Part shown: piece by piece, positions 2,972 through 40,069 of the stretch
Numbering within the stretch: position 1 is the first letter of the stretch
Layout: every line of letters starts with the position of its first letter
From: Candidatus Yanofskybacteria bacterium
Lineage (GTDB): Bacteria > Patescibacteriota > Minisyncoccia > 2-02-FULL-40-12 > GWA2-44-9
Assembly (NCBI GenBank): GCA_016181145.1
Contig: JACOZW010000002.1
Span: forward strand, 1 to 50,606
DNA: 50,606 nucleotides
Reading direction: 5' to 3'
Translations under genes and position numbers: made by a program
Notes under the pieces: generated by a model
What the model was told of the DNA's origin: nothing
The model's database searches: none
Seen by the model: the letters and a program-made list of their open reading frames with translations, nothing else

Positions 2972-3973
2972 ATGGTTATATCTAGAACACCTTTTAGGAT
3001 ATCTTTTTTTGGTGGTGGTACAGATTATCCCGCCTGGTATCAAAAGAATGACGGGGCTGTTTTATCTACAGCCATCAACAAATACTGCTATATTACTTGC
3101 CGGTATTTACCGCCATTTTTCAAATACAAGCATAGGATCGTATATAGCAAGAACGAAACAGTAAGTGAGATAGCTGAAATAGACCATCCATCGGTCAGAG
3201 AAACTATGCGTTTTCTTAATATTGATAAAGGGTTGGAGATACATCACGACGGAGACTTGCCATCTATGTCCGGGCTTGGGTCCAGCTCTTCTTTTACTGT
3301 TGGACTTGTAAACGCGCTAAGCATTCTGAACGGAACACCAAAAACAAAGAGAGAAATAGCAATGAATGCGATCCATATTGAACAAAATATGATAAAAGAA
3401 AACGTTGGTTCTCAGGACCAAACGGCGGCAGCTTTTGGCGGACTCAATCGCATAAATTTTGGAGGTGATGAAGAAATATCTATCAAGCCATTAATCTTAA
3501 GCTCTAGCCGACTTGAATCTCTTCAGAACCATCTGTTATTATTTTTTACCGGCCTATCGCGAGATGCTTCAAGAATCGCAAAAGAACAGATAACAAACAT
3601 TAAAGATAGGGATGTCGAGTTGAAATTAATGCACAGACTAGTTGACGAAGGAGAGGCAATTTTAAAAAATAACAGAAAAGGGCTTGATGAATTCGGAAAA
3701 CTACTTAATGAGGGTTGGCAAATAAAAAAATCATTGTCATCAAAAATATCCAATCCGTACATCGACGATGTCTATAAGGCCGGAATGCAAGCCGGAGCGT
3801 TAGGGGGCAAGCTTCTTGGCGCGGGAGGGGGTGGATTTATTCTATTCTTCGCGAAACCAGAGTTACATAAAAAAATAAAAAGCAAATTAAAAAATTTGCT
3901 TTTTGTACCATTTCGATTTGATCATTTGGGCAGCCGGATTATCTATACTGGTAATGATTTTGAAAAATTCTAG
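2972..3973 (+). CDS. GHMP-family sugar kinase (HddA / heptose-7-phosphate-kinase-like)
   Basis: RTPFRISFFGGGTDYP N-terminus, GHMP motif II PSMSGLGSSSSFTVGL and motif III GGKLLGAGGGGFILFF. Confidence 0.85.
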   Translation: MVISRTPFRISFFGGGTDYPAWYQKNDGAVLSTAINKYCYITCRYLPPFFKYKHRIVYSKNETVSEIAEIDHPSVRETMRFLNIDKGLEIHHDGDLPSMSGLGSSSSFTVGLVNALSILNGTPKTKREIAMNAIHIEQNMIKENVGSQDQTAAAFGGLNRINFGGDEEISIKPLILSSSRLESLQNHLLLFFTGLSRDASRIAKEQITNIKDRDVELKLMHRLVDEGEAILKNNRKGLDEFGKLLNEGWQIKKSLSSKISNPYIDDVYKAGMQAGALGGKLLGAGGGGFILFFAKPELHKKIKSKLKNLLFVPFRFDHLGSRIIYTGNDFEKF

Positions 3974-4848: not shown

Positions 4849-5796
4849 TTATATTTCGTGAGTCTTTCTTAACCAAGACAATACTGTTTCTTCCAGATCG
4901 GGCAGTGTAAGGTTATTCAAAGAATGCAGCCAATTTCTCGTTCCATAAACAACAAACTGCTTATCTTGCGAACCTATTCTTTTCAGCTTTATATCAGAAT
5001 CGTTGTCGCTTAATAATTCGCCGACAATGCTTCCCAGACCGCCGACCAGAGAATTTTCCTCAATGGTTATTAATAGTTCGGTGTTACGAATAGTTTCATA
5101 GAAGAGCGGATCAACCGGTTTTAATCGCATCAAGTCTAACAGCCCTACATTGATGCCACGACCTGCCAGACCCTCAGCCAACACCATAGCAACGGAGGTC
5201 ATGTAACCGGTACTGACAATACTTATTCTCTGAACCGGCCTTATAATCTTAAATCCCGACTGAAGCTCAAAACTATTTTCATAAATAACCGGATATACGC
5301 CTTTATCTAAGCGTATATAAGAGGGGCTGTTTTTCTCATATGCCATTCTTGCAACAGCAGAAGCTGACACAGCATCCGAAGGATTATAAATAGTGATTTC
5401 GGGTAATGATCTCATTATGGCTATGTCTTGGGTCCCATGGAGAGCAGGACCGTCCGAATCAAATGAGAACCCGGCACCGATACCAACCACAACTACCGGC
5501 AGATTCATCCCGCAAATATTGAACTTTATCTGCTCGAAACAGCGCATGGTCATAAAAGAGCAAATACCGAAAACAAATACCTTCTTACCGCATAGTGTAA
5601 GGCCAGTGGCAACATTAATCTGATTTTGCTCGGCCACGCCGATGTTAATAAACTGGTCCGGAAAATCACGAACGAATTTTTTAAGCCCGAAGGCATCCAT
5701 ATCATCCGTGAGAAAAAGCATATTCTTGTCTGCCTTGCCTATCTCATAAATTTCGTCAAAAAAGGCATCTCTTATATCTGTTTTGCTTATACCCAC
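4849..5796 (-). CDS. transketolase, C-terminal subunit (pyrimidine-binding + C-terminal domains)
   Basis: FINIGVAEQNQINVATGL and GPALHGTQDIAIMRSLP motifs. Overlaps the N-terminal subunit gene by 10 nt. Confidence 0.9.
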   Translation of the reverse strand: MGISKTDIRDAFFDEIYEIGKADKNMLFLTDDMDAFGLKKFVRDFPDQFINIGVAEQNQINVATGLTLCGKKVFVFGICSFMTMRCFEQIKFNICGMNLPVVVVGIGAGFSFDSDGPALHGTQDIAIMRSLPEITIYNPSDAVSASAVARMAYEKNSPSYIRLDKGVYPVIYENSFELQSGFKIIRPVQRISIVSTGYMTSVAMVLAEGLAGRGINVGLLDLMRLKPVDPLFYETIRNTELLITIEENSLVGGLGSIVGELLSDNDSDIKLKRIGSQDKQFVVYGTRNWLHSLNNLTLPDLEETVLSWLRKTHEI

Positions 5797-6605
5797 TGGG
5801 AACTCAGTTCCTTTCTAGCTATCTCCACTTGTTCCTTAGTCGGAACACCGTGATGCCAATTTGCTTTATTCTCCATAAACGAAACGCCCTTACCCTTTAC
5901 GGTATTAGCCATAACTATCGATGGTTTATCAGACAACTTAACCATCCCCAGGACAGCTAAAATCTCATCCATATTGTGTCCATCCAGCTCCAGATAATTC
6001 CAGCCGAATAATTCCAGTTTTCTGCCAAAGTTCATAAATACGCTATTATCATCATCGATTGTCTCCATAACAGATAAACGATTTCTATCAATTATCACCA
6101 CGAGATTATTTAATTTATGCTGTGAACCAAACATTAATGCTTCCCAGACTGAGCCTTCGAAAAGCTCGGCATCACCGATCATTGTGTAGGCATAATAATC
6201 CCTAGAATCCATTTTGGCTGCTAGAGCCATTCCGGCAGCAATACCAATAGAATGACCCAAAGAACCGGTATTTGTTTCGATCCCGGGCAGGCTTATGTCC
6301 ACCTGACCACCAAGACCGCCGTTCTTGCCATATGTCTCGTAAAGCCCAGGAGAGATGATGCCCATGTCCTTGAATATCGCAAACAGAGCAAGCGAAGCAT
6401 GTCCCTTGCTAAGTATAAATCTGTCCCTATCTTCCCATCCGGGATTATCCAATTTGAATCTCAGAATTTTCCCATAATACAACGCAACCAGAATATCCGT
6501 ACAAGAATATGTCCCGCCGATATGTCCTTTTCCACCAGAAACGGTTGATTCAAGGACTTCCATTCTTACCCAAGCTGCTTTCTTGATTAGCTCTTTGCTA
6601 TCCAT
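5787..6605 (-). CDS. transketolase, N-terminal (ThDP-binding) subunit
   Basis: GHIGGTYSCTDIL, LSKGHASLALFA, GSLGHSIGIAAGMALA and GDAELFEGSVWEA motifs. Confidence 0.9.
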   Translation of the reverse strand: MDSKELIKKAAWVRMEVLESTVSGGKGHIGGTYSCTDILVALYYGKILRFKLDNPGWEDRDRFILSKGHASLALFAIFKDMGIISPGLYETYGKNGGLGGQVDISLPGIETNTGSLGHSIGIAAGMALAAKMDSRDYYAYTMIGDAELFEGSVWEALMFGSQHKLNNLVVIIDRNRLSVMETIDDDNSVFMNFGRKLELFGWNYLELDGHNMDEILAVLGMVKLSDKPSIVMANTVKGKGVSFMENKANWHHGVPTKEQVEIARKELSSQWV

Positions 6606-7753
6606 GTCAGGCCTCCGGTTCGATATTCCAGATTTATTTTTTCTGGGCTAAACGGCTCTATGATTTTTTGATTGTTATCACAGAAAACTTCGACAAAAGT
6701 GGGCTGATCATCAGACATAATAACTTTTAGCTTCTCATCTATCTCTTCGTGGCCAGTTATAACCGCGTATCTCAACCCGAATGCATCAGCAATTTTAGCT
6801 AGATCTAGAGACTCAGCGCCAGTTTCATCATCTGATCCTATGCGCCTACCCTCAAAAACACTATCCTGCCAGTTTCTCATAGAAACGTATCCGCCATTAT
6901 TGATAACAAACAATTTTATATTAAGTCCGTAATACGATATCGTCTTAAGCTCCTGGATATTTAATTCGAGCGAGCCATCTCCTGTTATGGCTAAAATCTG
7001 GGCATCTTTCTTGGCAACACTTGCGCCGATAGCTAACGGAATTGTTAATCCCATTGCGGCAAATGTTCCGGACGTTAGCTCTCTCTGGCCATTTTCAAAT
7101 CTGAAGACCTGGCCGCCGACATAGTAATTTGAGCCGGCATCAGTAACCAAAACATTGCGCGCGCCGGAAAGTGCGTCAACTCTCGACATAAAATAGTAGA
7201 GGTCAATCGGATCTTTTACCATATCTTCTGTTACCATAGGATAAGCTTCTTTCAAACTTTGACAGTAGCTAAGCCAAGAGTTGAAATTGAAAGATCCGGA
7301 TAACTTAGCGTTTAATTTATTGATCACTGTTTTAACATCTGCATTTATAGGCAGGTCTATTCTCACGCCTGATTTTTTTAACTCGGCCGATTCTATATCG
7401 ACAACGATCCTGAATGCACTCTCGGAAAAAGCATCTAATTCGTGGCCGACAAACGGCACCGCAAGCCTGCTACCCAAAGAGATAATCAGATCCGCTGACT
7501 TTAGTATTTTTTTACAATACCGACTCCCCTTAATTCCTGCCAACCCCATATTGCTAGGATGAGAAAAAGGCAGAATATCAATACCGAGCCTGGATAGAAC
7601 CACCGGCGCATTAAGAAGATTCAACAATTCCTTAAAGTCATTTATAGCATTCCCCTGCCTGATTCCGTAACCAGCAACAATAAGCGGCCTGTGCGATTGG
7701 CTTATGGCATGCAGTATTAAATCAATATCCTTTTCCAGGTCATGTATCGGCAT
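6587..7753 (-). CDS. ThDP-dependent ALS/YerE-fold enzyme, central + C-terminal domains (N-terminal domain encoded separately)
   Basis: Central domain PLIVAGYGIRQ..., and the C-terminal ThDP motif GDGSLELNIQELKTISYYGLNIKLFVINNGGY (GDG-x24-NN). Confidence 0.85.
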   Translation of the reverse strand: MPIHDLEKDIDLILHAISQSHRPLIVAGYGIRQGNAINDFKELLNLLNAPVVLSRLGIDILPFSHPSNMGLAGIKGSRYCKKILKSADLIISLGSRLAVPFVGHELDAFSESAFRIVVDIESAELKKSGVRIDLPINADVKTVINKLNAKLSGSFNFNSWLSYCQSLKEAYPMVTEDMVKDPIDLYYFMSRVDALSGARNVLVTDAGSNYYVGGQVFRFENGQRELTSGTFAAMGLTIPLAIGASVAKKDAQILAITGDGSLELNIQELKTISYYGLNIKLFVINNGGYVSMRNWQDSVFEGRRIGSDDETGAESLDLAKIADAFGLRYAVITGHEEIDEKLKVIMSDDQPTFVEVFCDNNQKIIEPFSPEKINLEYRTGGLTWIAKS

Positions 7754-7769
7754 ACTTTTAACCGGCGGG

Positions 7770-8237
7770 CTAAAGCCTTGCCTTCTCCAGATGATATCTA
7801 ATTAAACTAGGATCATTAACCATAACCGCATACTTAGTTAAGGAACTTACTATTGGAATAATATCAATTTCAGCAGTTCCAAAACTTCTTAACCCAGGAA
7901 TTCCCATATTGTGAGTTGTGTGATTGCGCGGCGCTTGCCCGGATATGATCAGAACCGGAGCGGCATCAACATACGCCTCAGCTAAACCCGGTATGGCATT
8001 AGTTGAGCCCGGCCCGCTAGTAAGACAAACCGCCCCCAAAGACTGTTTTAGCCTGGCATATGCTTCAGCCATCATCGGAGAAGCCGCTTCGTTTCTGGCG
8101 CAATAATATTTTATGCTCGGCTGGCTTGCAATCCCATCATTAAGATACATAGCTCCATTTCCGGTGAGAAGAAAGATATCTTCGATACCATTATCAACTA
8201 GAAATCTGGCAATAAAATCTGCAACTCTTGTCATCAT
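7770..8237 (-). CDS. ThDP-dependent ALS/YerE-fold enzyme, N-terminal pyrimidine-binding domain (split or frameshifted from 6587..7753)
   Basis: FLLTGNGAMYLND, ARNEAASPMMAEAYARL and GPGSTNAIPGLAEAY motifs. It stops 16 nt before the next ORF, which is in another frame. A GGAGGG RBS lies just upstream. Confidence 0.85.
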   Translation of the reverse strand: MMTRVADFIARFLVDNGIEDIFLLTGNGAMYLNDGIASQPSIKYYCARNEAASPMMAEAYARLKQSLGAVCLTSGPGSTNAIPGLAEAYVDAAPVLIISGQAPRNHTTHNMGIPGLRSFGTAEIDIIPIVSSLTKYAVMVNDPSLIRYHLEKARL

Positions 8238-9264: not shown

Positions 9265-10239
9265 ATGCCGCCAACTTCTATGCCTAAAACAAATACAGTC
9301 CACTCGCTGACTCTCTATAGAAAAATGTACATGACAAGAAAAGCTGAAGAAAGAATCCAGATAGAAGACAAAAAAAATGAGATGAAGACTCCAATGCATA
9401 TGTCTATGGGAGAAGAAGCAATCTCTGCCGGAGTTTGTGCGGCCCTGAACAAAAGAGCGCAGATCTTTAGCACCTACCGGACACATGCCGTATATCTCTC
9501 GGCCACCGAAGATTTGAAAGGTTTTTTTGCTGAATTATACGGTAAAGCCACGGGGCCAGGAGGCGGCAAAGGAGGTTCTATGCATCTGGCTAATCCTAAG
9601 CGGGGCGTGATATTCAGTTCCGCAGTAGTTGCCACAAATATTGCTCCGGCTCTCGGAGCTGCTTTTGCAAACCGTCGATTAGGTAATGATAAGGTGGCTA
9701 CGACATTCTTCGGAGATGGGGCAGTCGACGAGGGTGTATTTTGGGAAAGTATTAATCTGGCCTGCCTCTGGAAACTACCCGTATTGTTCGTGTATGAAGA
9801 TAATAATTTAGCTATTCACACCCCGGCTTCTATAAGACATAGTTACAAAAACATCGTCGAGATAGTAAAAAAGTTTGGATGTCCAGCAGTAAAATATGAC
9901 GGTACTGATGTAGAAAAAATTTATCAACTAACAGAATCTGCATTGAAACAATTAAAGTCTGGGCCATTTTTTATGTCTTTAAAGTACTATCGATATCTTG
10001 AGCATGTGGGCATAGGAGAAGATTTTAATGCAGGCTATCGTTCTAAAGAAGAATTCCTGAAATGGCAAAAAATTGATCCCCTGGATACCCAGAGGGCAAG
10101 GTTAGTTAAATTGGGTCTCGAGAACACAGTGCTAGCACTAGAAAAGAAGGTGCTGAAAGATATTAATAATGCAGTTGACCTAGCAAAGTCAGCGCCATTT
10201 CCAGAACCAAGAGATCTTTACCGTGGAGTTTATGAATAA
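9265..10239 (+). CDS. ThDP-dependent 2-oxoacid dehydrogenase E1 component, alpha subunit
   Basis: GEEAISAGVCAAL, YRTHAVYL and GGKGGSMHL, plus the ThDP motif FFGDGAVDEGVFWESINLA...VYEDNNLAI. The start may be M1 or M6. Confidence 0.9.
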   Translation: MPPTSMPKTNTVHSLTLYRKMYMTRKAEERIQIEDKKNEMKTPMHMSMGEEAISAGVCAALNKRAQIFSTYRTHAVYLSATEDLKGFFAELYGKATGPGGGKGGSMHLANPKRGVIFSSAVVATNIAPALGAAFANRRLGNDKVATTFFGDGAVDEGVFWESINLACLWKLPVLFVYEDNNLAIHTPASIRHSYKNIVEIVKKFGCPAVKYDGTDVEKIYQLTESALKQLKSGPFFMSLKYYRYLEHVGIGEDFNAGYRSKEEFLKWQKIDPLDTQRARLVKLGLENTVLALEKKVLKDINNAVDLAKSAPFPEPRDLYRGVYE

Positions 10240-11284
10240 AAATATTAGAAAAATTAGCTACCAGCAGGCAATTAGCGAGGCTCTTAGCCAAGAAATGGAA
10301 CGAGATCCGAGAGTTTTTACTTATGGACTAGATGTAGCCGACCATAAATCAATATTCGGTTCAACGGCCGGATTAGTAAAAAAGTTCGGACCTAAAAGAT
10401 GTTTTAGCACTCCCCTCTCAGAAGAAGCCCTTATGGGTTTTGGTATTGGGGCAGCCCTCAACGGACTCAGGCCGGTTAATATTCATATACGAGTAGAGTT
10501 TTTATTGCTAGCCATGAACCAACTGGCCAACATAGCCTCTTCTTTAAGATATGGCAGTAAGGGGGAGCTGTCAGTACCGATAGTTATTAGGGTTATAATC
10601 GGACGAGGCTGGGGTCAAGGCTACCAACACTCAAAGAGCCTACAGTCATTTTTCGCTCATATACCAGGATTAAAAGTAATCATGCCTACGACTCCATATG
10701 ATATGAAGGGGTTATTAGTTTCGGCCATAAGAGATAACGATCCTGTTATTTGCCTAGAGCATCGTTGGCTCTATTGGATTGAAGATCATGTTCCCGAAGA
10801 ACTCTACACCGTGCCAATTGGTCAAAGCCATATCATAAGAAAAGGCTCTGACGTAACTGTTGTGGCAACATCGTGGATGAATGTTGAAGCTCACGATGCC
10901 GCAAATATACTGGCTAAAAGAGGGGTAAATATTGAGATAATTGACCCCAGGACAATATCGCCCCTGGACGACCGTACAATCATTGATTCAGTAAATAAAA
11001 CTGGACATTGTATCGTCGCAGATTATGATTGGCTTAACTGTGGCTTTGGCTCCGAAGTATCAGCGCGCGTATCTGAAAAATGTTTTAGAAAACTAAAATC
11101 TCCCGTAACAAGAATCGGCTTCGCACCGACTCCGTGTCCAACCACAAGACCACTTGAAAATTTATTCTATCCTAATGCGGTTAGCATTGTTAGGGCCGTA
11201 GAAAAAAAGATGAGCCTAAAAGAAGCAGATTTAAGAAAAGAGAGCTTTCATACCTGGGAAAATAAGTTTAGAGGACCTTTTTAA
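10223..11284 (+). CDS. 2-oxoacid dehydrogenase E1 component, beta subunit
   Basis: ISYQQAISEALSQEMERDPRVFTYGLDV and PLSEEALMGFGIGAALNGLRP, with a C-terminal transketolase-C-like domain. Overlaps the alpha gene by 17 nt. Confidence 0.9.
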   Translation: MEFMNKNIRKISYQQAISEALSQEMERDPRVFTYGLDVADHKSIFGSTAGLVKKFGPKRCFSTPLSEEALMGFGIGAALNGLRPVNIHIRVEFLLLAMNQLANIASSLRYGSKGELSVPIVIRVIIGRGWGQGYQHSKSLQSFFAHIPGLKVIMPTTPYDMKGLLVSAIRDNDPVICLEHRWLYWIEDHVPEELYTVPIGQSHIIRKGSDVTVVATSWMNVEAHDAANILAKRGVNIEIIDPRTISPLDDRTIIDSVNKTGHCIVADYDWLNCGFGSEVSARVSEKCFRKLKSPVTRIGFAPTPCPTTRPLENLFYPNAVSIVRAVEKKMSLKEADLRKESFHTWENKFRGPF

Positions 11285-12155: not shown

Positions 12156-12179
12156 AAAAATGGACGGTAGTCCATTTTT
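12156..12179. terminator. short bidirectional hairpin between convergent genes
   Basis: AAAAATGGAC-GGTA-GTCCATTTTT, a 5-bp GC core flanked by A and T runs. Confidence 0.4.
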
Positions 12180-13069
12180 CATGCTTGTTCAAATAAAACA
12201 TCTAGGTGCCTCTCTATAGCGAGTCTGACATCCGTAAAATTCACACTTAGCTGCCCACAAGTCCAGGCAGTATCAAGCACCAATCGACGAGGAAAGGATA
12301 TCGTGCATACCTCTTGTGGCATTTCTTCGCGAGAACTCGGAATATTATGGCGCCGAAAATAATTCAACACAGCATCGGCAATATCAAAGCGCGACAGTGG
12401 CTCACCAGAGCATGAACAATGATAAATAACATTTCTATATTCTCCTATATAGATCCTCCTGAGCATCTTTAAAAAATCAAATAGATATGCCGGCCTAAGA
12501 AAAATGTTATTCCAAAATGGCAAGTGGTCGAATCCTTGAAGAGTTCTAACCATTGGTGTAATTAGGCGATTATCCACCCCCAGCATACTCTGAACCCGAA
12601 CCACTACTCCACCAAAATGGATGACCACGCGCTCCGCACAAGCCTTGGATAGTCCGTAGAAGTTAGCAGGCTCAATAGAATCTTGTTCGGTATAAAATCG
12701 ACCCTCGCTGTTTCCGCTAAAAACATTGTCCGTAGAAACAAACAACACCCGCTTAGCAGACTGACACATACTTGCAGTAAGACCAACATTGGAATCGATG
12801 ACCTCTCTGGCATTTTCCGGCCTATTACAATATTTTGTGTCAACCACTCCAGCTAAGTGAAGTACGAAGTCATATACTTTAGGCGCAAATTTACTAGAAG
12901 AATCCCTGATAATATACACTTTGTTGAACTTTTTAAAGGAAGGATAATCTGGAATCAGAGATGTCCTTTGCGTAAGCCATATCTCATCTTCAAGATTGAA
13001 AACTTTGTCAAGATTCTCTAAGACACCTCTGCCAATACGACTTGATGCGCCCGTGATAAGAACGTTCAT
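12179..13069 (-). CDS. NAD(P)-dependent sugar epimerase/reductase (RmlD-like SDR)
   Basis: VLITGASSRIGRG Rossmann motif and YGLSKACAE (YxxxK). I moved the start to the ATG at 13069 (MNVLITGASS), because the longer ORF start at 13105 lies upstream of the predicted -10/TSS. Confidence 0.8.
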   Translation of the reverse strand: MNVLITGASSRIGRGVLENLDKVFNLEDEIWLTQRTSLIPDYPSFKKFNKVYIIRDSSSKFAPKVYDFVLHLAGVVDTKYCNRPENAREVIDSNVGLTASMCQSAKRVLFVSTDNVFSGNSEGRFYTEQDSIEPANFYGLSKACAERVVIHFGGVVVRVQSMLGVDNRLITPMVRTLQGFDHLPFWNNIFLRPAYLFDFLKMLRRIYIGEYRNVIYHCSCSGEPLSRFDIADAVLNYFRRHNIPSSREEMPQEVCTISFPRRLVLDTAWTCGQLSVNFTDVRLAIERHLDVLFEQA

Positions 13070-13106
13070 GACCCACCCAACCCGATAACTTAAAATAACT
13101 TTCAAT

Positions 13107-13217: not shown

Positions 13218-14414
13218 ATGAAAAAAATAATATATCCCCTACAAAAAGATACTATCGCAAAAGAGGATCACCGCGCACTTGCCCAATGGATCGATAGTGA
13301 CCCATTACCACGCTTAACCATGGGATCTTTAGTTAAGAAATTTGAAGATAAATGGTCGGATTGGCTTGGTGTAAAATATTCTATAGCCTGTAATTCCGGC
13401 TCCTCGGCAAACTTGTTGATGTATTATACTCTCTTACGCTCGGGCAGATTAAAAAATAAGAAGATTATCGTACCAAGTGCTGCCTGGGTAACAACTGTGG
13501 CTCCAGCCATTCAGCTTGGATTTGAACCAATTATGTGTGAAGCCGATACCAAAACCTTCGGTTTAGATCATAATCACCTGGAGCAGCTTCTAAAAAAGCA
13601 TCGGCCCTCAACGGTAATTATGGTCCAAGTTTTAGGAGTACCCAATGATATGGATAAAATCATGAAGCTTAAAAAGAAATATAAATTCTTTCTCTTGGAA
13701 GATGTGTGTGCTGCCATGGGCTCAAAATATAAAGAGCGAAAACTTGGTACTTATGGTGATATGGCTAGTATCTCTACTTACTTTGGACACCAGTTCTCAA
13801 CAATAGAGGGTGGTCTTGTGTCAACTAATGACAGGGGGTTTTATGAACTCCTGATAATGCTTAGGAGTCATGGCTGGATAAGCGGTCTTAGTTCTAAGAC
13901 AAGGACTAATCTGCTTAAAAAATATAAGATAGCTGATACTGGCACGCATTTTATTTTTTGTGAACCCGGTTTTAATTTTCGCTTAACCGACCTGCAGGCA
14001 TTCATAGGAATCCGTCAGCTTGAAAAAATGGATTGGTTAGTGGAAAATAGATCTAGGAATCATAATTTATACAAGGATTTTCTGTCATCTAATTTTGACA
14101 TCCAAGAATATGACCGCAGCTCAAGAGTATGTAGCATACATTTCTGTGTACTAGCTGATAATAAAGAAGAGCGTATTAAAATAATTAAGGCCCTTGAAGA
14201 CAGCGGTATAGAAACAAGGCCCTTTACATCAGGTAATCAGGGTCTACATCCATACTGGTTCAGAGAATATGGAAAATTCAATGCTCCCGTGGCAGACCGC
14301 CTGTATTATTGTGGCTTTTTCTTACCTAACTATCCGACCCTTACTACAAAAGATATAAAATACATATGCTCAGTTGTAACAAAAGCGGCATTAAAAAACA
14401 GACATGAAGCATAA
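13218..14414 (+). CDS. PLP/PMP-dependent sugar 3-dehydratase of the DegT family (ColD / E1-type, His in place of catalytic Lys)
   Basis: DegT/DnrJ/EryC1 fold (ACNSGSSANLL, LLEDVCAAMGS). At the position where aminotransferases carry the Schiff-base Lys, the sequence reads STYFGHQFSTIEGG, followed by LRSHGW, as in ColD/E1 3-dehydratases. Confidence 0.7.
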   Translation: MKKIIYPLQKDTIAKEDHRALAQWIDSDPLPRLTMGSLVKKFEDKWSDWLGVKYSIACNSGSSANLLMYYTLLRSGRLKNKKIIVPSAAWVTTVAPAIQLGFEPIMCEADTKTFGLDHNHLEQLLKKHRPSTVIMVQVLGVPNDMDKIMKLKKKYKFFLLEDVCAAMGSKYKERKLGTYGDMASISTYFGHQFSTIEGGLVSTNDRGFYELLIMLRSHGWISGLSSKTRTNLLKKYKIADTGTHFIFCEPGFNFRLTDLQAFIGIRQLEKMDWLVENRSRNHNLYKDFLSSNFDIQEYDRSSRVCSIHFCVLADNKEERIKIIKALEDSGIETRPFTSGNQGLHPYWFREYGKFNAPVADRLYYCGFFLPNYPTLTTKDIKYICSVVTKAALKNRHEA

Positions 14415-15360
14415 ATCAAATAAAAATCCCAAAGTGCTGGTCACGGGAGGAGCTGGATATATTGGTTCTATTTTAGTGCCGACTTTATTGCACTCGGGCT
14501 TTGATGTCACGGTAATAGATAATTTTATGTACAGACAAACTCCCCTTCTAGACCATTGCCACCTCAAGCATTTGGATATAGTGAAAGGTGATACTAGAGA
14601 TGATAAACTTTTAAAAAAGTATATTCCCAAAGCAGATATAATAATACCACTTGCCTGCATAGTTGGTGCCCCGGCTTGCGATAAAGATCCTCTAAAGGCT
14701 AGGTCTGTAAACCTAGATGCAATTGTTAAAATTCTAAAAATAAAATCTCCCAGTCAATTAGTTATCTATCCCAACACAAATAGCGGTTATGGCGTTGGTC
14801 AAAAAGGAATTTATTGTAATGAAAAAACGCCCCTAAACCCAATATCTCTCTACGGTAAATTAAAGGTCCAAGCCGAAGAAGCTGTATTAAGCTCAAAAAA
14901 TTCAATTACACTAAGGCTAGCAACAGTATTTGGTCTAAGTCCCAGGATGAGACTAGATCTATTAGTAAACGATTTCGTCCATAGAGCAGTCAATGATAGA
15001 TTTCTAGTTTTATTTGAAGCCCACTTCAAAAGGAACTATGTCCACATAAGAGATGTCGCTTCTGCATTTATGCATAGCATAGAAAATTTCAATCGCATGA
15101 AAGGACAACCATATAATGTAGGCCTGAGCAAAGCCAATTTAAGCAAGTGGGAACTATGCCACGAAATAAAGAAACAGGTGCCTGAGTTCTACTTTCATGA
15201 AGCAGAAATAGGAGAAGATCCGGATAAACGTAATTATATTGTCAGTAACGCCAAAATTGAAGCGACAGGTTTTAAGACTAAGATTTCATTGCAAGAGGGA
15301 ATAGCTGAATTAATAAAGGGCTATCGCATCATTAGCCATAATAACTTTACCAATGTCTAA
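14404..15360 (+). CDS. NAD-dependent sugar-nucleotide epimerase/dehydratase
   Basis: VLVTGGAGYIGS Rossmann motif and a YGKLK (YxxxK) motif. Overlaps the upstream gene by 11 nt. Confidence 0.85.
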   Translation: MKHKSNKNPKVLVTGGAGYIGSILVPTLLHSGFDVTVIDNFMYRQTPLLDHCHLKHLDIVKGDTRDDKLLKKYIPKADIIIPLACIVGAPACDKDPLKARSVNLDAIVKILKIKSPSQLVIYPNTNSGYGVGQKGIYCNEKTPLNPISLYGKLKVQAEEAVLSSKNSITLRLATVFGLSPRMRLDLLVNDFVHRAVNDRFLVLFEAHFKRNYVHIRDVASAFMHSIENFNRMKGQPYNVGLSKANLSKWELCHEIKKQVPEFYFHEAEIGEDPDKRNYIVSNAKIEATGFKTKISLQEGIAELIKGYRIISHNNFTNV

Positions 15361-16330
15361 AAAAATCACCCCCAAAAAAGCTTTAATAACAGGAATTTCT
15401 GGTTCTGGGGCTAGCTACCTTGCAGATTATATTCTTGATAACCACCCCGACATTGAACTTCATGGCACAACTCGCAGTAACAGCAACCTCAAAAACATTG
15501 AAAATAGGATTAGTAAAATAAATCTCTGGACCGACATATTAGAGAACAAGGATGATCTAACTGAAATGCTTCGCCATCTTAAACCAGATTTGATTTTTCA
15601 CATCGCTTCATATGCTAACGTCCGGGAATCTTGGGATAGGGTGCCTTTTGTAATGGAAAACAATATCAAAATGACCGCCGATTTACTCGAGGCCATACGA
15701 CTAGCTGAAATTAAACCTAGAATTCAAATATGCAGCACACCTGAAGTCTATGGCCAGGTCGATCCTAAAAATATCCCAATTAATGAAAGCTGTCCTATTA
15801 ACCCGAGCAATCCCTATGCCGTATCCAAGTTCGCCCAGGAATCACTTGGATATTCTTACTTCAAGGGCTACGGTTTACCGATAGTAATCACCCGCATGTC
15901 TACCTACCTTAATCCCAGGAGGGCCGATCTCTTTGCTACTGCTTTTGCAATGCAAGTTGCGCGCATAGAGGCCGGCCTGCAAAAGACGTTACTCCACGGT
16001 AACCTCGAATCAACAAGAACAATCCTTGATGCTCGTGATTGTGCAAGTGCGTACTGGACAGCTCTTGAACGAGGTATACCTGGCCAAGTGTATAATATCG
16101 GTGGAATACAAATTGTAAGTGTTGGAGAATTTTTAGATATCCTTAAGAAAAAAGCTGCATGTCCTATCCCATCCGAAGTAGACCCAAAACTACTGAGGCC
16201 GTCTGATGTTACATTACAGGTTATAGATAGCACAAAATTTATGGATCAAACTGGCTGGAAACCCCAGTATACATTTGAAGAAAGTGTTGCTCTTCTGCTT
16301 GAACATTGCCGTCGGGAAGTTAAAAAATAA
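15353..16330 (+). CDS. GDP-mannose 4,6-dehydratase / GDP-6-deoxy-mannose reductase family (Gmd/Rmd-like)
   Basis: ALITGISGSGASYLADYIL, YAVSKFAQE and LRPSDV are arranged as in Gmd/Rmd proteins. Overlaps the upstream gene by 8 nt. Confidence 0.7.
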   Translation: MSKKITPKKALITGISGSGASYLADYILDNHPDIELHGTTRSNSNLKNIENRISKINLWTDILENKDDLTEMLRHLKPDLIFHIASYANVRESWDRVPFVMENNIKMTADLLEAIRLAEIKPRIQICSTPEVYGQVDPKNIPINESCPINPSNPYAVSKFAQESLGYSYFKGYGLPIVITRMSTYLNPRRADLFATAFAMQVARIEAGLQKTLLHGNLESTRTILDARDCASAYWTALERGIPGQVYNIGGIQIVSVGEFLDILKKKAACPIPSEVDPKLLRPSDVTLQVIDSTKFMDQTGWKPQYTFEESVALLLEHCRREVKK

Positions 16331-16459: not shown

Positions 16460-17391
16460 ATGGTAAGAAGAGTTTTAGTCTGTGGAGCAAGTGGATTTGT
16501 CGGGAGAAACATATTCGAACGCCTATCTGAGCGCCAAGATATTGAACTTATAGGAACTTACTATAAGAATCGTTTTAGCTCAGACCCGCGCTTAGTTCAA
16601 GTCGACCTAACTGACAGAAATCAGGTGAATGAGCTAATGAAGGGCGTTGATGTTTTAATCCAGGCCGCAGCGGTTACTAAGAAAGGCCATATATCCATGT
16701 TACCGATAATGGAATTATGAACCTCCTTCTGTATCAGGCTTCTTTTGACCAGTGCGTTGAAAAAGTAATTTTCTTCAGCTGTTCGATTATGTATCCCGGC
16801 GGTGATAGGCCTCTGAAAGAAACTGATCTGGATCTCAATGACGGTATTTATCCCGCATATTTAGGAGCTGGTTGGACAAAGGTCTATCTAGAGAAAATGT
16901 GTGACTTTTATTCACGCCAAGGCAGAACCAAGTTTGTCGTGATTAGGCATTCCAATACATACGGTCCGTATGATAAATATGATCTTGAGCGATCTCATAT
17001 GTTCGGCGCCAACATTACCAAAGTTATGACGGCTAAAGATAGTGATGAGATCACAGTCTGGGGAACCGGCCAGGAAAAAAGAGATCTGGTATATATTTCT
17101 GATGTTGTTGATTTTGTCGAGCTGGCCATGGCAAAGCAAAGTCAAGAAAACTTTGACCTAGTTAATGTCGGCTGCGGTGAAGCCCTGAGCGTAAACGATA
17201 TAATTTCAAAAATAATTCTTGCCTCAGGCAAGAACCTATCATTAACACACAATATAGCTGGACCGACTATTCCGGTTAGCATTGTACTCGACATAACAAG
17301 AGCAAAAAATGTATATGGCTGGCGACCTAAAGTTTCTCTTGATACGGGCATTGCTAAGACCATTGATTGGTATCGTAAAAATCTTCTATAA
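16460..17391 (+). pseudogene. GDP-L-fucose-synthase/ColC-like epimerase-reductase, interrupted by a frameshift near 16676-16682
   Basis: ORF 16409..16720 carries MVRRVLVCGASGFVGRN...QAAAVT and then runs into nonsense and a stop. The frame of ORF 16717..17391 is open from 16681 (ERPYIHVTDNGIMNLLLYQASF...SCSIMYP...YGPYDKYDLERSHMFGA). Joining the two at the AAGAAAGG run restores a normal SDR. AAGGGG RBS before the ATG at 16460. Confidence 0.75.
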
Positions 17392-17472: not shown

Positions 17473-18459
17473 ATGTTGGGGAAAATATCTGTGAAATACA
17501 GACCGCTCGGAGCAAGTGGAATTATAGTTTCCGAAATTGGATTTGGTGGCTGGGGCATCGGTGGCGTAACTCCGGGTCCGACCTCCTACGGTCCGACCGA
17601 CGACAATGAATCGCGAAGAGCCCTAGAAACAGCTTTTGATAAGGGAATAAACTATTACGACACCGCTAGCGTCTACGGCAAGAGCGAAGAATTAATCGGA
17701 AAAACTTTCAGGGATAAACGAGACCAGGTCGTTATTGGCACTAAGGTTGGATTTCTAGAACATCACACTCCGCAAGATTTTTCCCAGAAAAATATTGTCG
17801 CTACGCTTGAAAAAAGTTTAAATAATCTGGGAACAGATTACATCGACCTTTATCAGCTACACAACCCCGATATTCCAAATTTACCAATGGATGAGATCAT
17901 AGATACCTTAAACGGATTAAAGACTCGGGGCTTGATCAGGGCCCTCGGAGTTTCAGTTAAACATCCTAATCACGGCTTAACAGTGTTTAAATACGGGATA
18001 TTCAGCTCAATACAGGCTAATCTTAGTATGATCGATCAGAGAGCAATTGATAACAATCTCATGGAACTAGCCGAGGAACAGAGCGTGGGAGTTATCGGGC
18101 GCACTCCCTTGAACTTTGGATTCCTTACTGATAACGGGAAAACAATGAGCCTTGACTTCAGTCCGCAGGATCATAGGTCAGTTTGGCCAATGAAGCAAAG
18201 AGAAGCCTGGCAAAAGGCTGCCCGACTATTGTCGGAAGTCGCCCCTGAATATCCACTGGCCCAATTGGCCTTATGTTACTGCTTAAGCATTGCGGGAGTG
18301 AGTACTGTTATCCCCGGCCTACTTACAGTAAATGATGTTTTGGAGAACACCCTCGCCTCAAGCCTGCCGAGACTAAGTCCGGACCAAATGGATCAGATCA
18401 GACAGATATACAACGAAAACGACCAATTCTTCGTCCAGCAACCTAGACCCCCTCAATAA
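17473..18459 (+). CDS. aldo/keto reductase
   Basis: GFGGWGIGG, YYDTASVYGKSEELIG and LYQLHNPD motifs. Confidence 0.9.
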   Translation: MLGKISVKYRPLGASGIIVSEIGFGGWGIGGVTPGPTSYGPTDDNESRRALETAFDKGINYYDTASVYGKSEELIGKTFRDKRDQVVIGTKVGFLEHHTPQDFSQKNIVATLEKSLNNLGTDYIDLYQLHNPDIPNLPMDEIIDTLNGLKTRGLIRALGVSVKHPNHGLTVFKYGIFSSIQANLSMIDQRAIDNNLMELAEEQSVGVIGRTPLNFGFLTDNGKTMSLDFSPQDHRSVWPMKQREAWQKAARLLSEVAPEYPLAQLALCYCLSIAGVSTVIPGLLTVNDVLENTLASSLPRLSPDQMDQIRQIYNENDQFFVQQPRPPQ

Positions 18460-38860: not shown

Positions 38861-40069
38861 ATGAACATACTCCAAGTCAATACTGTTGATACAAGAGGAG
38901 GAGCTGCTAAAGTGGCCTATCGCCTTAAAAATGGGTTAACTGGCCGTGGACACCCCACGGATATGATAGTCGCCCGAAAGTACTCCCAAGACCCCAATGT
39001 GCACCTGTTACGCCCCTACAATCGCCTACGCGAGCGTATAGTGCGCAAATTGACCTATTGGCTAGCTGATGACCTAGATCTCTCTCCAGCAGGACGCATC
39101 CATACAATGCCCTCCTATAAACAGGCTGATATTGTCCACCTACATAATATTCACTCAAATTACTTTAACCTGGGGACACTCCCGTCAATCACCCGCGAGA
39201 AACCGACCGTCTGGACATTGCATGACATGTGGGCATTAACAGCTCATTGCGCCTATACCATGGACGGCTCAGTCTCCAATGGCTTTTTCCAATGCCCGAA
39301 TCTTGATTCATATCCCCCCATTGCCTGGCATAATGAAAAATATTTAGAGTGGAAAAAAAGAAGAGTTTACGGGAGGTCTGATTTCCATATTGTAGTTCCA
39401 TCGCGCTGGCTACTAGGAAAAGTTAAACAAACCGTTCTTTCCGAAAAACCGTCGTCAGTTATTTACAACGGTATTGATGTCAATATTTTTAGCCCCGAAC
39501 CCCAGCAGAAGGTACGCGAGGAACTTGATCTGCCGAAAGATAAATTCATAATCCTGTTCGCATCAAAAGGCGGTCTCGACCAGCAGCGCAAGGGTTACGA
39601 TTTTGTTCAATCCATTTCACAATAATTAAAAGATAATCCTAGGGCCCTCTCCTTGATTATCGGCGGCGACCAGGCCGTTAAGACTCCTAACCTGATAAAG
39701 ACCGGCTACATCAGCGACGAATCTCTCTTGGCAAAATATTTTTCTGCAGCAGATATATTCCTATTCCCTTCTACCGCCGACAACTGCCCCCTGGTCGTCC
39801 TTGAGGCGATGGCCTGCGGATTGCCTGTCGTTTCTTTTGCTACCGGAGGAATACCAGAACTAGTCGACCATCAAAAAACAGGCTATATTGCCCGCTATAA
39901 AGATGCAGATGACTTGGCTAACGGCGTTGCCTGGATGCTGGCGCGCACACCCGCCGAACACGCTAATATGCGCGAATCTGCTGTTATAAAAATCAGATCT
40001 GGGTTTACTCTGGACCACATGGTCGAACAATATCTACAACTCTATGAATCTATGCTAAAAAATAGTTAG
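38861..40069 (+). pseudogene. GT4-family (GT-B) glycosyltransferase interrupted by a single in-frame TAA at 39623-39625
   Basis: ORFs 38861..39625 (N-terminal GT4 domain, MNILQVNTVDTRGGAAKVAYRL) and 39653..40069 (C-terminal domain, FPSTADNCPLVVLEAMACGLPVV...GGIPELV) are in the same frame. Read-through gives ...FVQSISQ*LKDNPRALSLIIGGDQ..., a normal interdomain linker. Confidence 0.8.

Follow-up and report, generated by a model that had tools for sequence, protein, structure and literature searches.

A predicted ColD-type 3-dehydratase in a widespread gene cassette for a probable 3-deoxy, carbon-branched surface sugar

Contig JACOZW010000002.1 of a Candidatus Yanofskybacteria bacterium, analyzed here over its whole 50.6 kb (hereafter the window; about 40% G+C), encodes at positions 13,218-14,414 a DegT/DnrJ/EryC1-family protein (P0001) that is, judging from its sequence and predicted fold, a sugar 3-deoxygenating enzyme of the ColD type and not of the E1 type. 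Based on the genes that accompany it across genomes, we consider it probable that P0001 acts as a 3-dehydratase on a GDP-4-keto-heptose and that its product is handed to thiamine diphosphate (ThDP)-dependent carboligases and to reductases, leading to an undescribed surface sugar. The cassette to which P0001 belongs is widespread, and its gene content suggests that it probably makes a 3-deoxy, carbon-branched surface sugar rather than colitose. The initial annotation of this DNA had proposed a colitose-like operon; that reading is partly supported, and we replace it, with moderate confidence, by one centered on GDP-heptose.

The dehydratase, its catalytic histidine and its fold

The open reading frame (ORF) of P0001 is intact and encodes 398 residues. 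The Pfam model DegT_DnrJ_EryC1 matched the protein along its whole length (238 bits, residues 14-387), and none of the NCBIfam equivalogs matched it at or above its own cut-off, the best being RfbH (208 bits, cut-off 423). When the single sequence was compared with solved structures, four ColD entries ranked best (180 bits; 2gms), followed by E1 (140 bits) and perosamine synthase (126 bits). With a family profile built from P0001 and 35 homologues (59-85% identical) the order was the same and ColD stood further ahead, at 252.7 bits compared with 189.7 bits for E1 and about 153 bits for aminotransferases. The AlphaFold model of P0001, a fold-type I structure of the DegT/aspartate-aminotransferase kind, has a predicted local distance difference test (pLDDT) score of 92.6, and its top Foldseek matches are ColD entries (TM 0.84-0.87). 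P0001 keeps every residue that is invariant among 36 aligned homologues. The family never varies at G61, S62, E161, D162, S184, S186, N253 or R255, each of which aligned with the identical residue of ColD; we presume that these positions bind the cofactor, through an Asp to the pyridine nitrogen and a Ser/Gly cradle for the phosphate.

The initial annotation had pointed to a His in the place of the Lys that forms a Schiff base with pyridoxal 5'-phosphate (PLP) in aminotransferases, and alignment with ColD and E1 confirmed this position. His191 of P0001 falls in the same column as His188 of ColD in a HMMER alignment to solved structures, and the identity of the ColD column is fixed unambiguously by the PDB entries of the H188N and S187N/H188K mutants; the family profile places the family His on His220 of E1. 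We also looked for a Lys elsewhere in the active-site loop and found none in residues 180-200. In addition, a paralogue from locus L051 that is 27% identical to P0001 (SFHPVKSVTTGEGG) carries a Lys in the His191 column, within a SFHPVK...GEGG block, and since the Lys of this aminotransferase-type protein aligns there, the column is validated. The LRSHGW stretch that follows the active-site block corresponds to residues 215-220.

His191 is invariant in the 36 aligned homologues and in all 80 species-level orthologues. A broader alignment of 151 sequences, made up of P0001 and 150 cluster representatives that reach down to about 30% identity, keeps it in 147; of the other four, two have a gap at this position, one has a Tyr and one a Ser. 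At the sequence level, His191 is thus a family trait, neither a chance substitution nor a sequencing error. A review describes the replacement of Lys by His as the main difference between 3-dehydratases and aminotransferases, and the absence of an iron-sulfur cluster as what sets ColD apart from E1 and SpnQ. As placed by the profile, the Cys-rich stretch of E1 (GRDCYCAPGCDNTC) aligns with a ColD-like segment that reads RSHGWISGLSSKTRTNLL in P0001 and contains no Cys, and the E1 Cys motif was present in none of the 150 cluster representatives. A search of the 92%-complete genome with FAD_binding_6 (PF00970), our proxy for an E3/AscD-type reductase, gave no match. The choice of the ColD over the E1 type made in the initial annotation therefore holds. 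Within that type, P0001 is distant from ColD proper (about 28% identity) and falls in a large subfamily marked by a GHQ motif.

Two other assignments were considered and rejected. An E1/RfbH-type enzyme was ruled out by the missing Cys-rich segment together with the lack of a FAD_binding_6 match in the genome, and an ordinary DegT/DnrJ/EryC1 aminotransferase by the missing loop Lys and by the alignment of the paralogue's Lys with His191. The wider idea that P0001 does not dehydrate at all, being either an aminotransferase or an inactive relic of a decaying island, draws on SpnQ, a His-type enzyme that can transaminate without a reductase according to the review, and on three other genes of the island that are broken. 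In comparable conditions, however, neither ColD nor E1 transaminated according to the same review, and P0001 is itself intact, keeps G61, S62, D162, S186, N253 and R255 (cofactor columns as assumed above) and shares 55-85% identity with orthologues from many phyla; we regard this explanation as highly improbable.

Several more distant homologues show unusual architectures. Three ColD-type proteins (P0135, P0139 and P0175) contain an intein with a LAGLIDADG domain, located shortly C-terminal to the catalytic GH...EGG block (host residues ~195-215). Natural fusions join the ColD-type domain to a true Gmd (P0193; GDP_Man_Dehyd 448 bits), to Fcl/epimerase-like short-chain dehydrogenase/reductases (SDRs; P0137, P0225 and P0266) and to a glycosyltransferase of family GT2 (P0123).

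A conserved cassette and the predicted heptose substrate

A pattern scan in which each species was represented by one genome gave matches in 219 genomes, and the best 80 loci were analyzed for genes lying within 10 kb of the dehydratase gene; 53 of them, in which the sequence extends 6 kb or more to either side, make up a well-flanked set. The 80 loci span Patescibacteria, Elusimicrobiota, Nitrospirota, Acidobacteriota, Myxococcota, KSB1, Omnitrophota and one Nanoarchaeota bin. A Cj1427-like gene lies near the dehydratase gene in 76 of the 80 loci and in all 53 well-flanked ones, an HddA-like kinase gene in 58/80 and 46/53, and a gene for at least one ThDP enzyme in 69/80 and 49/53. Because these are the conserved neighbours, C3-deoxygenation of a GDP-4-keto-heptose appears to be the likeliest reaction for P0001. 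The corresponding genes of the window are listed in Table 1.

Table 1. Features of the window, with predicted products and the evidence for each
Feature	Coordinates	Strand	Evidence and remarks
HddA-like GHMP (heptose) kinase	2972-3973	+	NCBIfam HddA, 160 bits (cut-off 600); heptose-phosphate kinases in PDB
Split transketolase-like ThDP enzyme	4849-6605	-	N-part 5787-6605, C-part 4849-5796; Pfam and NCBIfam transketolase halves
ALS/YerE-like ThDP enzyme, two ORFs	6587-8237	-	Pfam TPP_enzyme_N on one ORF (7770-8237), TPP_enzyme_M and TPP_enzyme_C on the other (6587-7753); ORFs 16 nt apart
PDH-E1-like ThDP pair	9265-11284	+	Alpha 9265-10239, beta 10223-11284; Pfam E1_dh, Transket_pyr, Transketolase_C
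RmlD-like SDR, divergent from the dehydratase operon	12179-13105	-	Pfam RmlD_sub_bind, 71.8 bits; NCBIfam rmlD, 68.5 bits, below cut-off
P0001, predicted ColD-type (His-type, Fe-S-free) PMP/PLP-dependent nucleotide-sugar 3-dehydratase, 398 aa	13218-14414	+	Pfam, PDB, AlphaFold/Foldseek
Active-site block STYFGHQFSTIEGG (P0001 residues 186-199)	13773-13814	+	Translation; His191 codon 13788-13790
Predicted Cj1427-like NAD-dependent GDP-heptose C4-dehydrogenase	14404-15360	+	PDB match and predicted structure; 11-nt overlap with the dehydratase gene
GDP-sugar extended SDR, Rmd/DmhA-like	15353-16330	+	C4-reductase or heptose 4,6-dehydratase; 8-nt overlap with the preceding gene
Fcl/ColC-like epimerase-reductase gene, broken	16461-17391	+	N-terminal frame runs to 16720, C-terminal frame resumes at 16717
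Aldo/keto reductase	17473-18459	+	Pfam Aldo_ket_red, 199 bits

First, the protein encoded immediately downstream of P0001 matched the PDB entries 6vo6/6vo8, titled Cj1427, over its full length (403 bits, residues 9-317). Its predicted structure also matched these entries (Z 41.5, root-mean-square deviation 1.9 over 306 residues, 54% identity), with the next-best SDR at Z 34.5 and all other SDRs at or below this value. In sequence and predicted fold it is a close full-length homologue of Cj1427, which was crystallized with GDP-D-glycero-D-mannoheptose.

Second, HddA is the kinase's best NCBIfam match, and its four best PDB matches are all heptose-phosphate kinases (3k85, 4usm/4usk and 4n3o; 122-140 bits), and the next is a fucokinase at 61 bits. 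Nucleotidyltransferases adjacent to the kinase were tested in five other loci: in four the best match was HddC or mannose-1-phosphate guanylyltransferase, below cut-off, and in the fifth (L094) it was a long-form RmlA thymidylyltransferase. Together with the Cj1427-like and Rmd-like matches, these scores agree with the nucleotide proposed in the initial annotation, so that the substrate is probably linked to GDP.

Third, the SDR encoded at 15353-16330 matched Rmd (2pk3, a reductase; 171 bits) and the GDP-heptose 4,6-dehydratase of Campylobacter jejuni (159 bits) about equally, and it is not Gmd (122 bits against NCBIfam gmd, cut-off 415). Its motifs (T-P-E, Y-x-x-x-K and a PRR stretch) do not separate 4,6-dehydratases from C4-reductases; Rmd keeps the Ser/Thr-x-Glu pattern in our alignment, and Gmd likewise keeps it. 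If this SDR were a GDP-heptose 4,6-dehydratase, P0001 would deoxygenate GDP-6-deoxy-4-keto-D-lyxo-heptose at C3, giving a 3,6-dideoxy-heptose route as in C. jejuni HS:5, a pathway with exactly the same reaction order (PMC10440746) and with heptose supply genes identical to those assumed here. We consider this unlikely, as the best match of the SDR is the reductase Rmd, whose size it shares, and as several loci have an Rmd/DmhA-like gene at the place held by the Fcl-like reductase in others. Moreover, an orthologue of this SDR is found in only 18 of the 80 loci, compared with 76 for the Cj1427-like gene, so that 6-deoxygenation would be optional at the family level. Because the Gmd/Rmd-like gene is restricted to these 18 loci, the core substrate is more likely to be a 4-keto-heptose that keeps its 6-hydroxyl.

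The SDR, the Gmd/Rmd-like SDR and the split Fcl-like gene that the initial annotation placed downstream of the dehydratase gene are all present, but the complete-looking GDP-3,6-dideoxyhexose route into which it had joined them did not stand, given that the overlapping SDR is of the Cj1427 type and the kinase HddA-like, and that a Gmd/Rmd-like gene is confined to a minority of loci. In a classical route of this kind Gmd would act on GDP-mannose, P0001 on GDP-4-keto-6-deoxymannose and a ColC-like enzyme would finish the sugar; with the ColC-like gene broken, the 4-keto-3,6-dideoxyhexose would be left to a YerE-like enzyme. The gene coupled to P0001 encodes a homologue of a heptose C4-dehydrogenase, however, and not Gmd; the true Gmd of this genome (502 bits, cut-off 415), itself a point in favour of such a route, is encoded on another contig beside GmhA. 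The conserved kinase is of the heptose type, and relatives hold ThDP genes alongside an intact Fcl-like gene. ColD is indeed the best solved relative of P0001, Gmd-ColD fusions occur among more distant family members (P0193) and an Fcl/ColC-like gene follows the dehydratase gene in 53 of the 80 loci, but Foldseek structural alignments put P0001 at only about 28% identity to ColD. Taken together, we judge a colitose-like route to be decidedly unlikely.

For the GDP-heptose route that we favour, the precursor would be supplied by the HddA-like kinase of the window, by GmhA (contig C41), by a GmhB-like protein (encoded on contig C46) and by a guanylyltransferase; the genome encodes two nucleotidyltransferases, both outside the window. 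In five genomes of the same genus, GmhA is encoded on the same contig as the dehydratase, 11-26 kb away, and it is also found in relatives that lack the cassette. In another genome of the genus (G006; contig C26), GmhA and Cj1427-like genes lie 5 kb apart; a P0001-type query found no dehydratase orthologue in this genome, which is 90% complete and in 150 contigs. On C41 (L016:3032-7683, minus strand), the genes for the true Gmd, an Fcl-like protein (280 bits, below cut-off) and GmhA adjoin an MsbA/PglK-like ABC exporter gene, and this cluster could be a separate branch for a GDP-6-deoxy-sugar or a heptose.

By analogy with the mechanism established for ColD and for the heptose C3-dehydratase of C. 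jejuni, the pyridoxamine 5'-phosphate (PMP) of P0001 would form a ketimine with the C4 keto group of the GDP-4-keto sugar, His191 would abstract the C4' proton and the 3-hydroxyl would be expelled. Hydrolysis would then yield GDP-3-deoxy-4-keto-heptose and ammonia, and L-glutamate would regenerate PMP, giving 2-oxoglutarate. Cj1427 reportedly recycles its bound NADH with 2-oxoglutarate. Since the dehydratase would make 2-oxoglutarate and the Cj1427-type enzyme would use it, the two may feed each other's cofactor cycles, a suggestion of our own. The 3-deoxy-4-keto-heptose would afterwards be branched at its ketone by a ThDP system, or reduced or epimerized by SDRs.

ThDP enzymes and broken genes

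The ThDP genes found near the dehydratase gene are of three types. A pyruvate dehydrogenase E1 (PDH-E1) alpha/beta pair is present in 32/80 loci (19/53 well flanked), an acetolactate synthase (ALS)-like gene in 17/80, mostly in Nitrospira (15/53), and a split transketolase in 16/80 (11/53). Mapped onto a quick dehydratase tree, the ThDP partner switches type at least 15 times over well-supported branches (minima summed over the three partner types); the dehydratase/dehydrogenase core thus stays constant and the ThDP enzyme is exchanged. The initial annotation had linked the operon to the ThDP genes of the window through a YerE-type enzyme that would use the product of the blocked pathway. The link itself is real, as the well-flanked loci attest, but it does not stem from the frameshift, and the YerE-type partner gave way: in the closest relatives the conserved partner is PDH-E1 alpha/beta or the split transketolase, not an ALS/YerE-like gene, and the ALS/YerE-like gene of the window is itself split. 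The E1 alpha/beta pair, orthologues of which also stand beside the dehydratase gene in genomes of the same genus, is the best candidate here for branching at the ketone.

ThDP-dependent branching of 3-deoxy-4-keto sugars has been described for YerE and ErwE (PMC9306805), and the two-subunit systems AviB1/AviB2 and Pau11/Pau12 are further precedents for ThDP branching (PMC4753412). In vitro, Cj1427 and the HS:5 C3-dehydratase together form GDP-D-glycero-3-deoxy-4-keto-heptose (PMC10680097). A 3-deoxy-4-keto product of P0001 would be the type of acceptor used by these branching enzymes, which fits the conserved ThDP genes. We tentatively propose, as one possibility, that a self-priming couple of ColD-type and Cj1427-type enzymes would make GDP-3-deoxy-4-keto-heptose and that interchangeable ThDP enzymes (PDH-E1-, ALS/YerE- or transketolase-like) would convert it into a family of higher sugars, 3-deoxy, C-branched and so far undescribed, at the cell surface of Candidate Phyla Radiation (CPR) bacteria, Nitrospira, Elusimicrobia and others.

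The broken Fcl/ColC-like gene reported in the initial annotation was confirmed. Its two ORFs match positions 1-76 and 96-240 of the Pfam Epimerase model, and when its DNA was aligned with that of the intact orthologue from a same-genus genome (G001; 83% amino acid identity in the C-terminal part), 19 nt proved to be missing at ~16679/16680. Read-through with TGA as a sense codon was ruled out by hand, the read-through frame not being SDR-like, and a homopolymer sequencing error is unlikely for a gap of 19 nt. The break is real in this sequence and may be a fixed mutation, a strain variant or an assembly fault. In G001, where the Fcl-like gene is intact, the same genes for E1 alpha/beta and transketolase are present; the ThDP link is therefore independent of the break. 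Apart from the Fcl-like and ALS-like genes, the third broken gene of the contig encodes a glycosyltransferase of family GT4, with its N-domain ORF at 38861-39625 and its C-domain ORF at 39653-40069 (plus strand).

Several points weigh against a GDP-heptose and ThDP branching route. Three genes of the island are broken, so that this organism may be losing the pathway. In NCBIfam, the kinase, nucleotidyltransferases, GmhB-like protein and dehydratase all scored below the curated cut-offs, and the catalytic loop of P0001 (residues 189-196) is modelled at a pLDDT below 50. The window has no nucleotidyltransferase gene beside the kinase gene; the candidates lie on other contigs, and the better of them adjoins an APH-type kinase, a pairing that we take to resemble AmgK/MurU. 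Given the Rmd/DmhA-like SDR in the window and the true Gmd and Fcl-like genes elsewhere in the genome, 6-deoxy substrates would also be available. The GDP-fucose-synthase-like gene that follows the dehydratase gene in 53 of the 80 loci encodes an enzyme that, if it reduces C4, would compete with branching at C4. Finally, the split transketolase could simply supply sedoheptulose 7-phosphate and not act on a sugar nucleotide.

Some loci combine these genes in other ways. On a complete Nitrospira chromosome the operon runs in the order dehydratase, Fcl-like, Cj1427-like, kinase, nucleotidyltransferase, class I/II aminotransferase, B12 radical S-adenosylmethionine (SAM) protein and ALS-like enzyme. 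The aminotransferase and a 513-residue B12 radical SAM protein, encoded between the nucleotidyltransferase and ALS-like genes (L077:14935-16140), hint that the sugar or the keto-acid donor is further aminated and C-methylated. In L022, L040, L076 and L078, a gene for an aldo/keto reductase accompanies, in conserved synteny, the Fcl-like gene and a large B12 radical SAM gene. The Nanoarchaeota-labelled metagenome-assembled genome (L094) has the full cassette in an 11-kb stretch, comprising genes for the dehydratase, an Rmd-like SDR, a Cj1427-like protein, E1 alpha/beta, two Fcl-like proteins, the kinase and a nucleotidyltransferase; its dehydratase groups with a Liptonbacteria sequence, by transfer or mis-binning.

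The genome studied here encodes a second His-type DegT protein on contig C42 (L019:2538-3770, minus strand; neighbours to 7676). This protein scored 382 bits against RfbH/E1 (cut-off 423); its motif reads SFYASHIITAMGGG, and Cys is lacking at the E1 cluster site. Its gene is divergent from one encoding an intact 616-residue ALS/YerE-like ThDP enzyme, and a 4,6-dehydratase-like SDR and a PanB-like keto-acid hydroxymethyltransferase are also encoded nearby. The C42 cluster looks like a second module of a 3-dehydratase plus a ThDP carboligase.

Significance and comparison with known systems

His-type 3-dehydratases are already well understood from ColD, E1 and the C. jejuni capsule enzymes, and P0001 is not new as a class. 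In our literature search, we found no paper in which a Cj1427-type dehydrogenase and a C3-dehydratase are paired in nature, the two terms occurring together only in PMC10440746 and PMC10680097, and none describing a natural pathway for the cassette. What would be new is a natural route to 3-deoxy-heptoses that retain the 6-hydroxyl, and the use of such sugars as acceptors in ThDP-dependent carbon branching, a prediction directly testable with published substrates and assays. Most of the contig consists of glycan biosynthesis genes, and it makes up about 5% of the DNA of a 0.95-Mb genome; the product is therefore probably important for life on a host cell. To our knowledge, the surface glycans of ultra-small CPR bacteria and of nitrite-oxidizing Nitrospira are largely uncharacterized.

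P0001 shares its fold with ColD/WbdK of Escherichia coli O55 (PDB 2gms, 2r0t, 3b8x and 3gr9), a GDP-4-keto-6-deoxy-D-mannose 3-dehydratase. As in ColD, a catalytic His occupies the Lys column, a cluster motif is absent and a similar stretch follows the motif (RSHGW.. in P0001, RAHGW.. in ColD); as in ColD, the substrate is probably GDP-linked and PMP probably recycled with glutamate. The two differ in overall sequence and in the motif itself, which is GHQ in P0001 and SHH in ColD. Unlike ColD, P0001 is accompanied by a Cj1427-type C4-dehydrogenase and a heptose kinase instead of Gmd, with ThDP enzymes conserved nearby, and its likely substrate is a heptose that keeps the 6-hydroxyl.

The GDP-heptose C3-dehydratases of C. 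jejuni HS:5 and HS:11 (UniProt A0A0U3ALB0 and A0A0U2RG51), which we liken to P0001 by their published function, catalyze the PLP/glutamate-dependent C3-deoxygenation of GDP-4-keto-heptoses (PMC10440746, PMC10680097). The in vitro combination of Cj1427 with the HS:5 dehydratase is the very reaction pair proposed here, where the neighbouring dehydrogenase is 54% identical to Cj1427. For C. jejuni, Cj1427-type dehydrogenases are listed in serotypes HS:2, 3, 4, 23/36 and 33, C3-dehydratases are listed in HS:5 and HS:11, and the 3-deoxy-6-hydroxy products were presented as novel in vitro constructs, obtained by mixing enzymes of different serotypes (PMC10680097). In contrast, the dehydratase and Cj1427-like genes overlap in the window and occur together in all 53 well-flanked loci.

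The conserved neighbourhood of P0001 also fits the logic of the yersiniose- and erwiniose-type pathways, in which a His-type 3-dehydratase (E1; AscC/DdhC/RfbH) acting with E3 is followed by ThDP-dependent branching at C4 through YerE or ErwE and by a reductase that finishes the sugar. E1, however, carries a [2Fe-2S] cluster, needs E3 and acts on a CDP-hexose, whereas P0001 lacks the Cys motif, stands in a GDP-heptose context and comes from a genome without a FAD_binding_6 match. Like AviB1/AviB2 and Pau11/Pau12, the ThDP partner here would mainly be an enzyme of two subunits, of the PDH-E1-like type.

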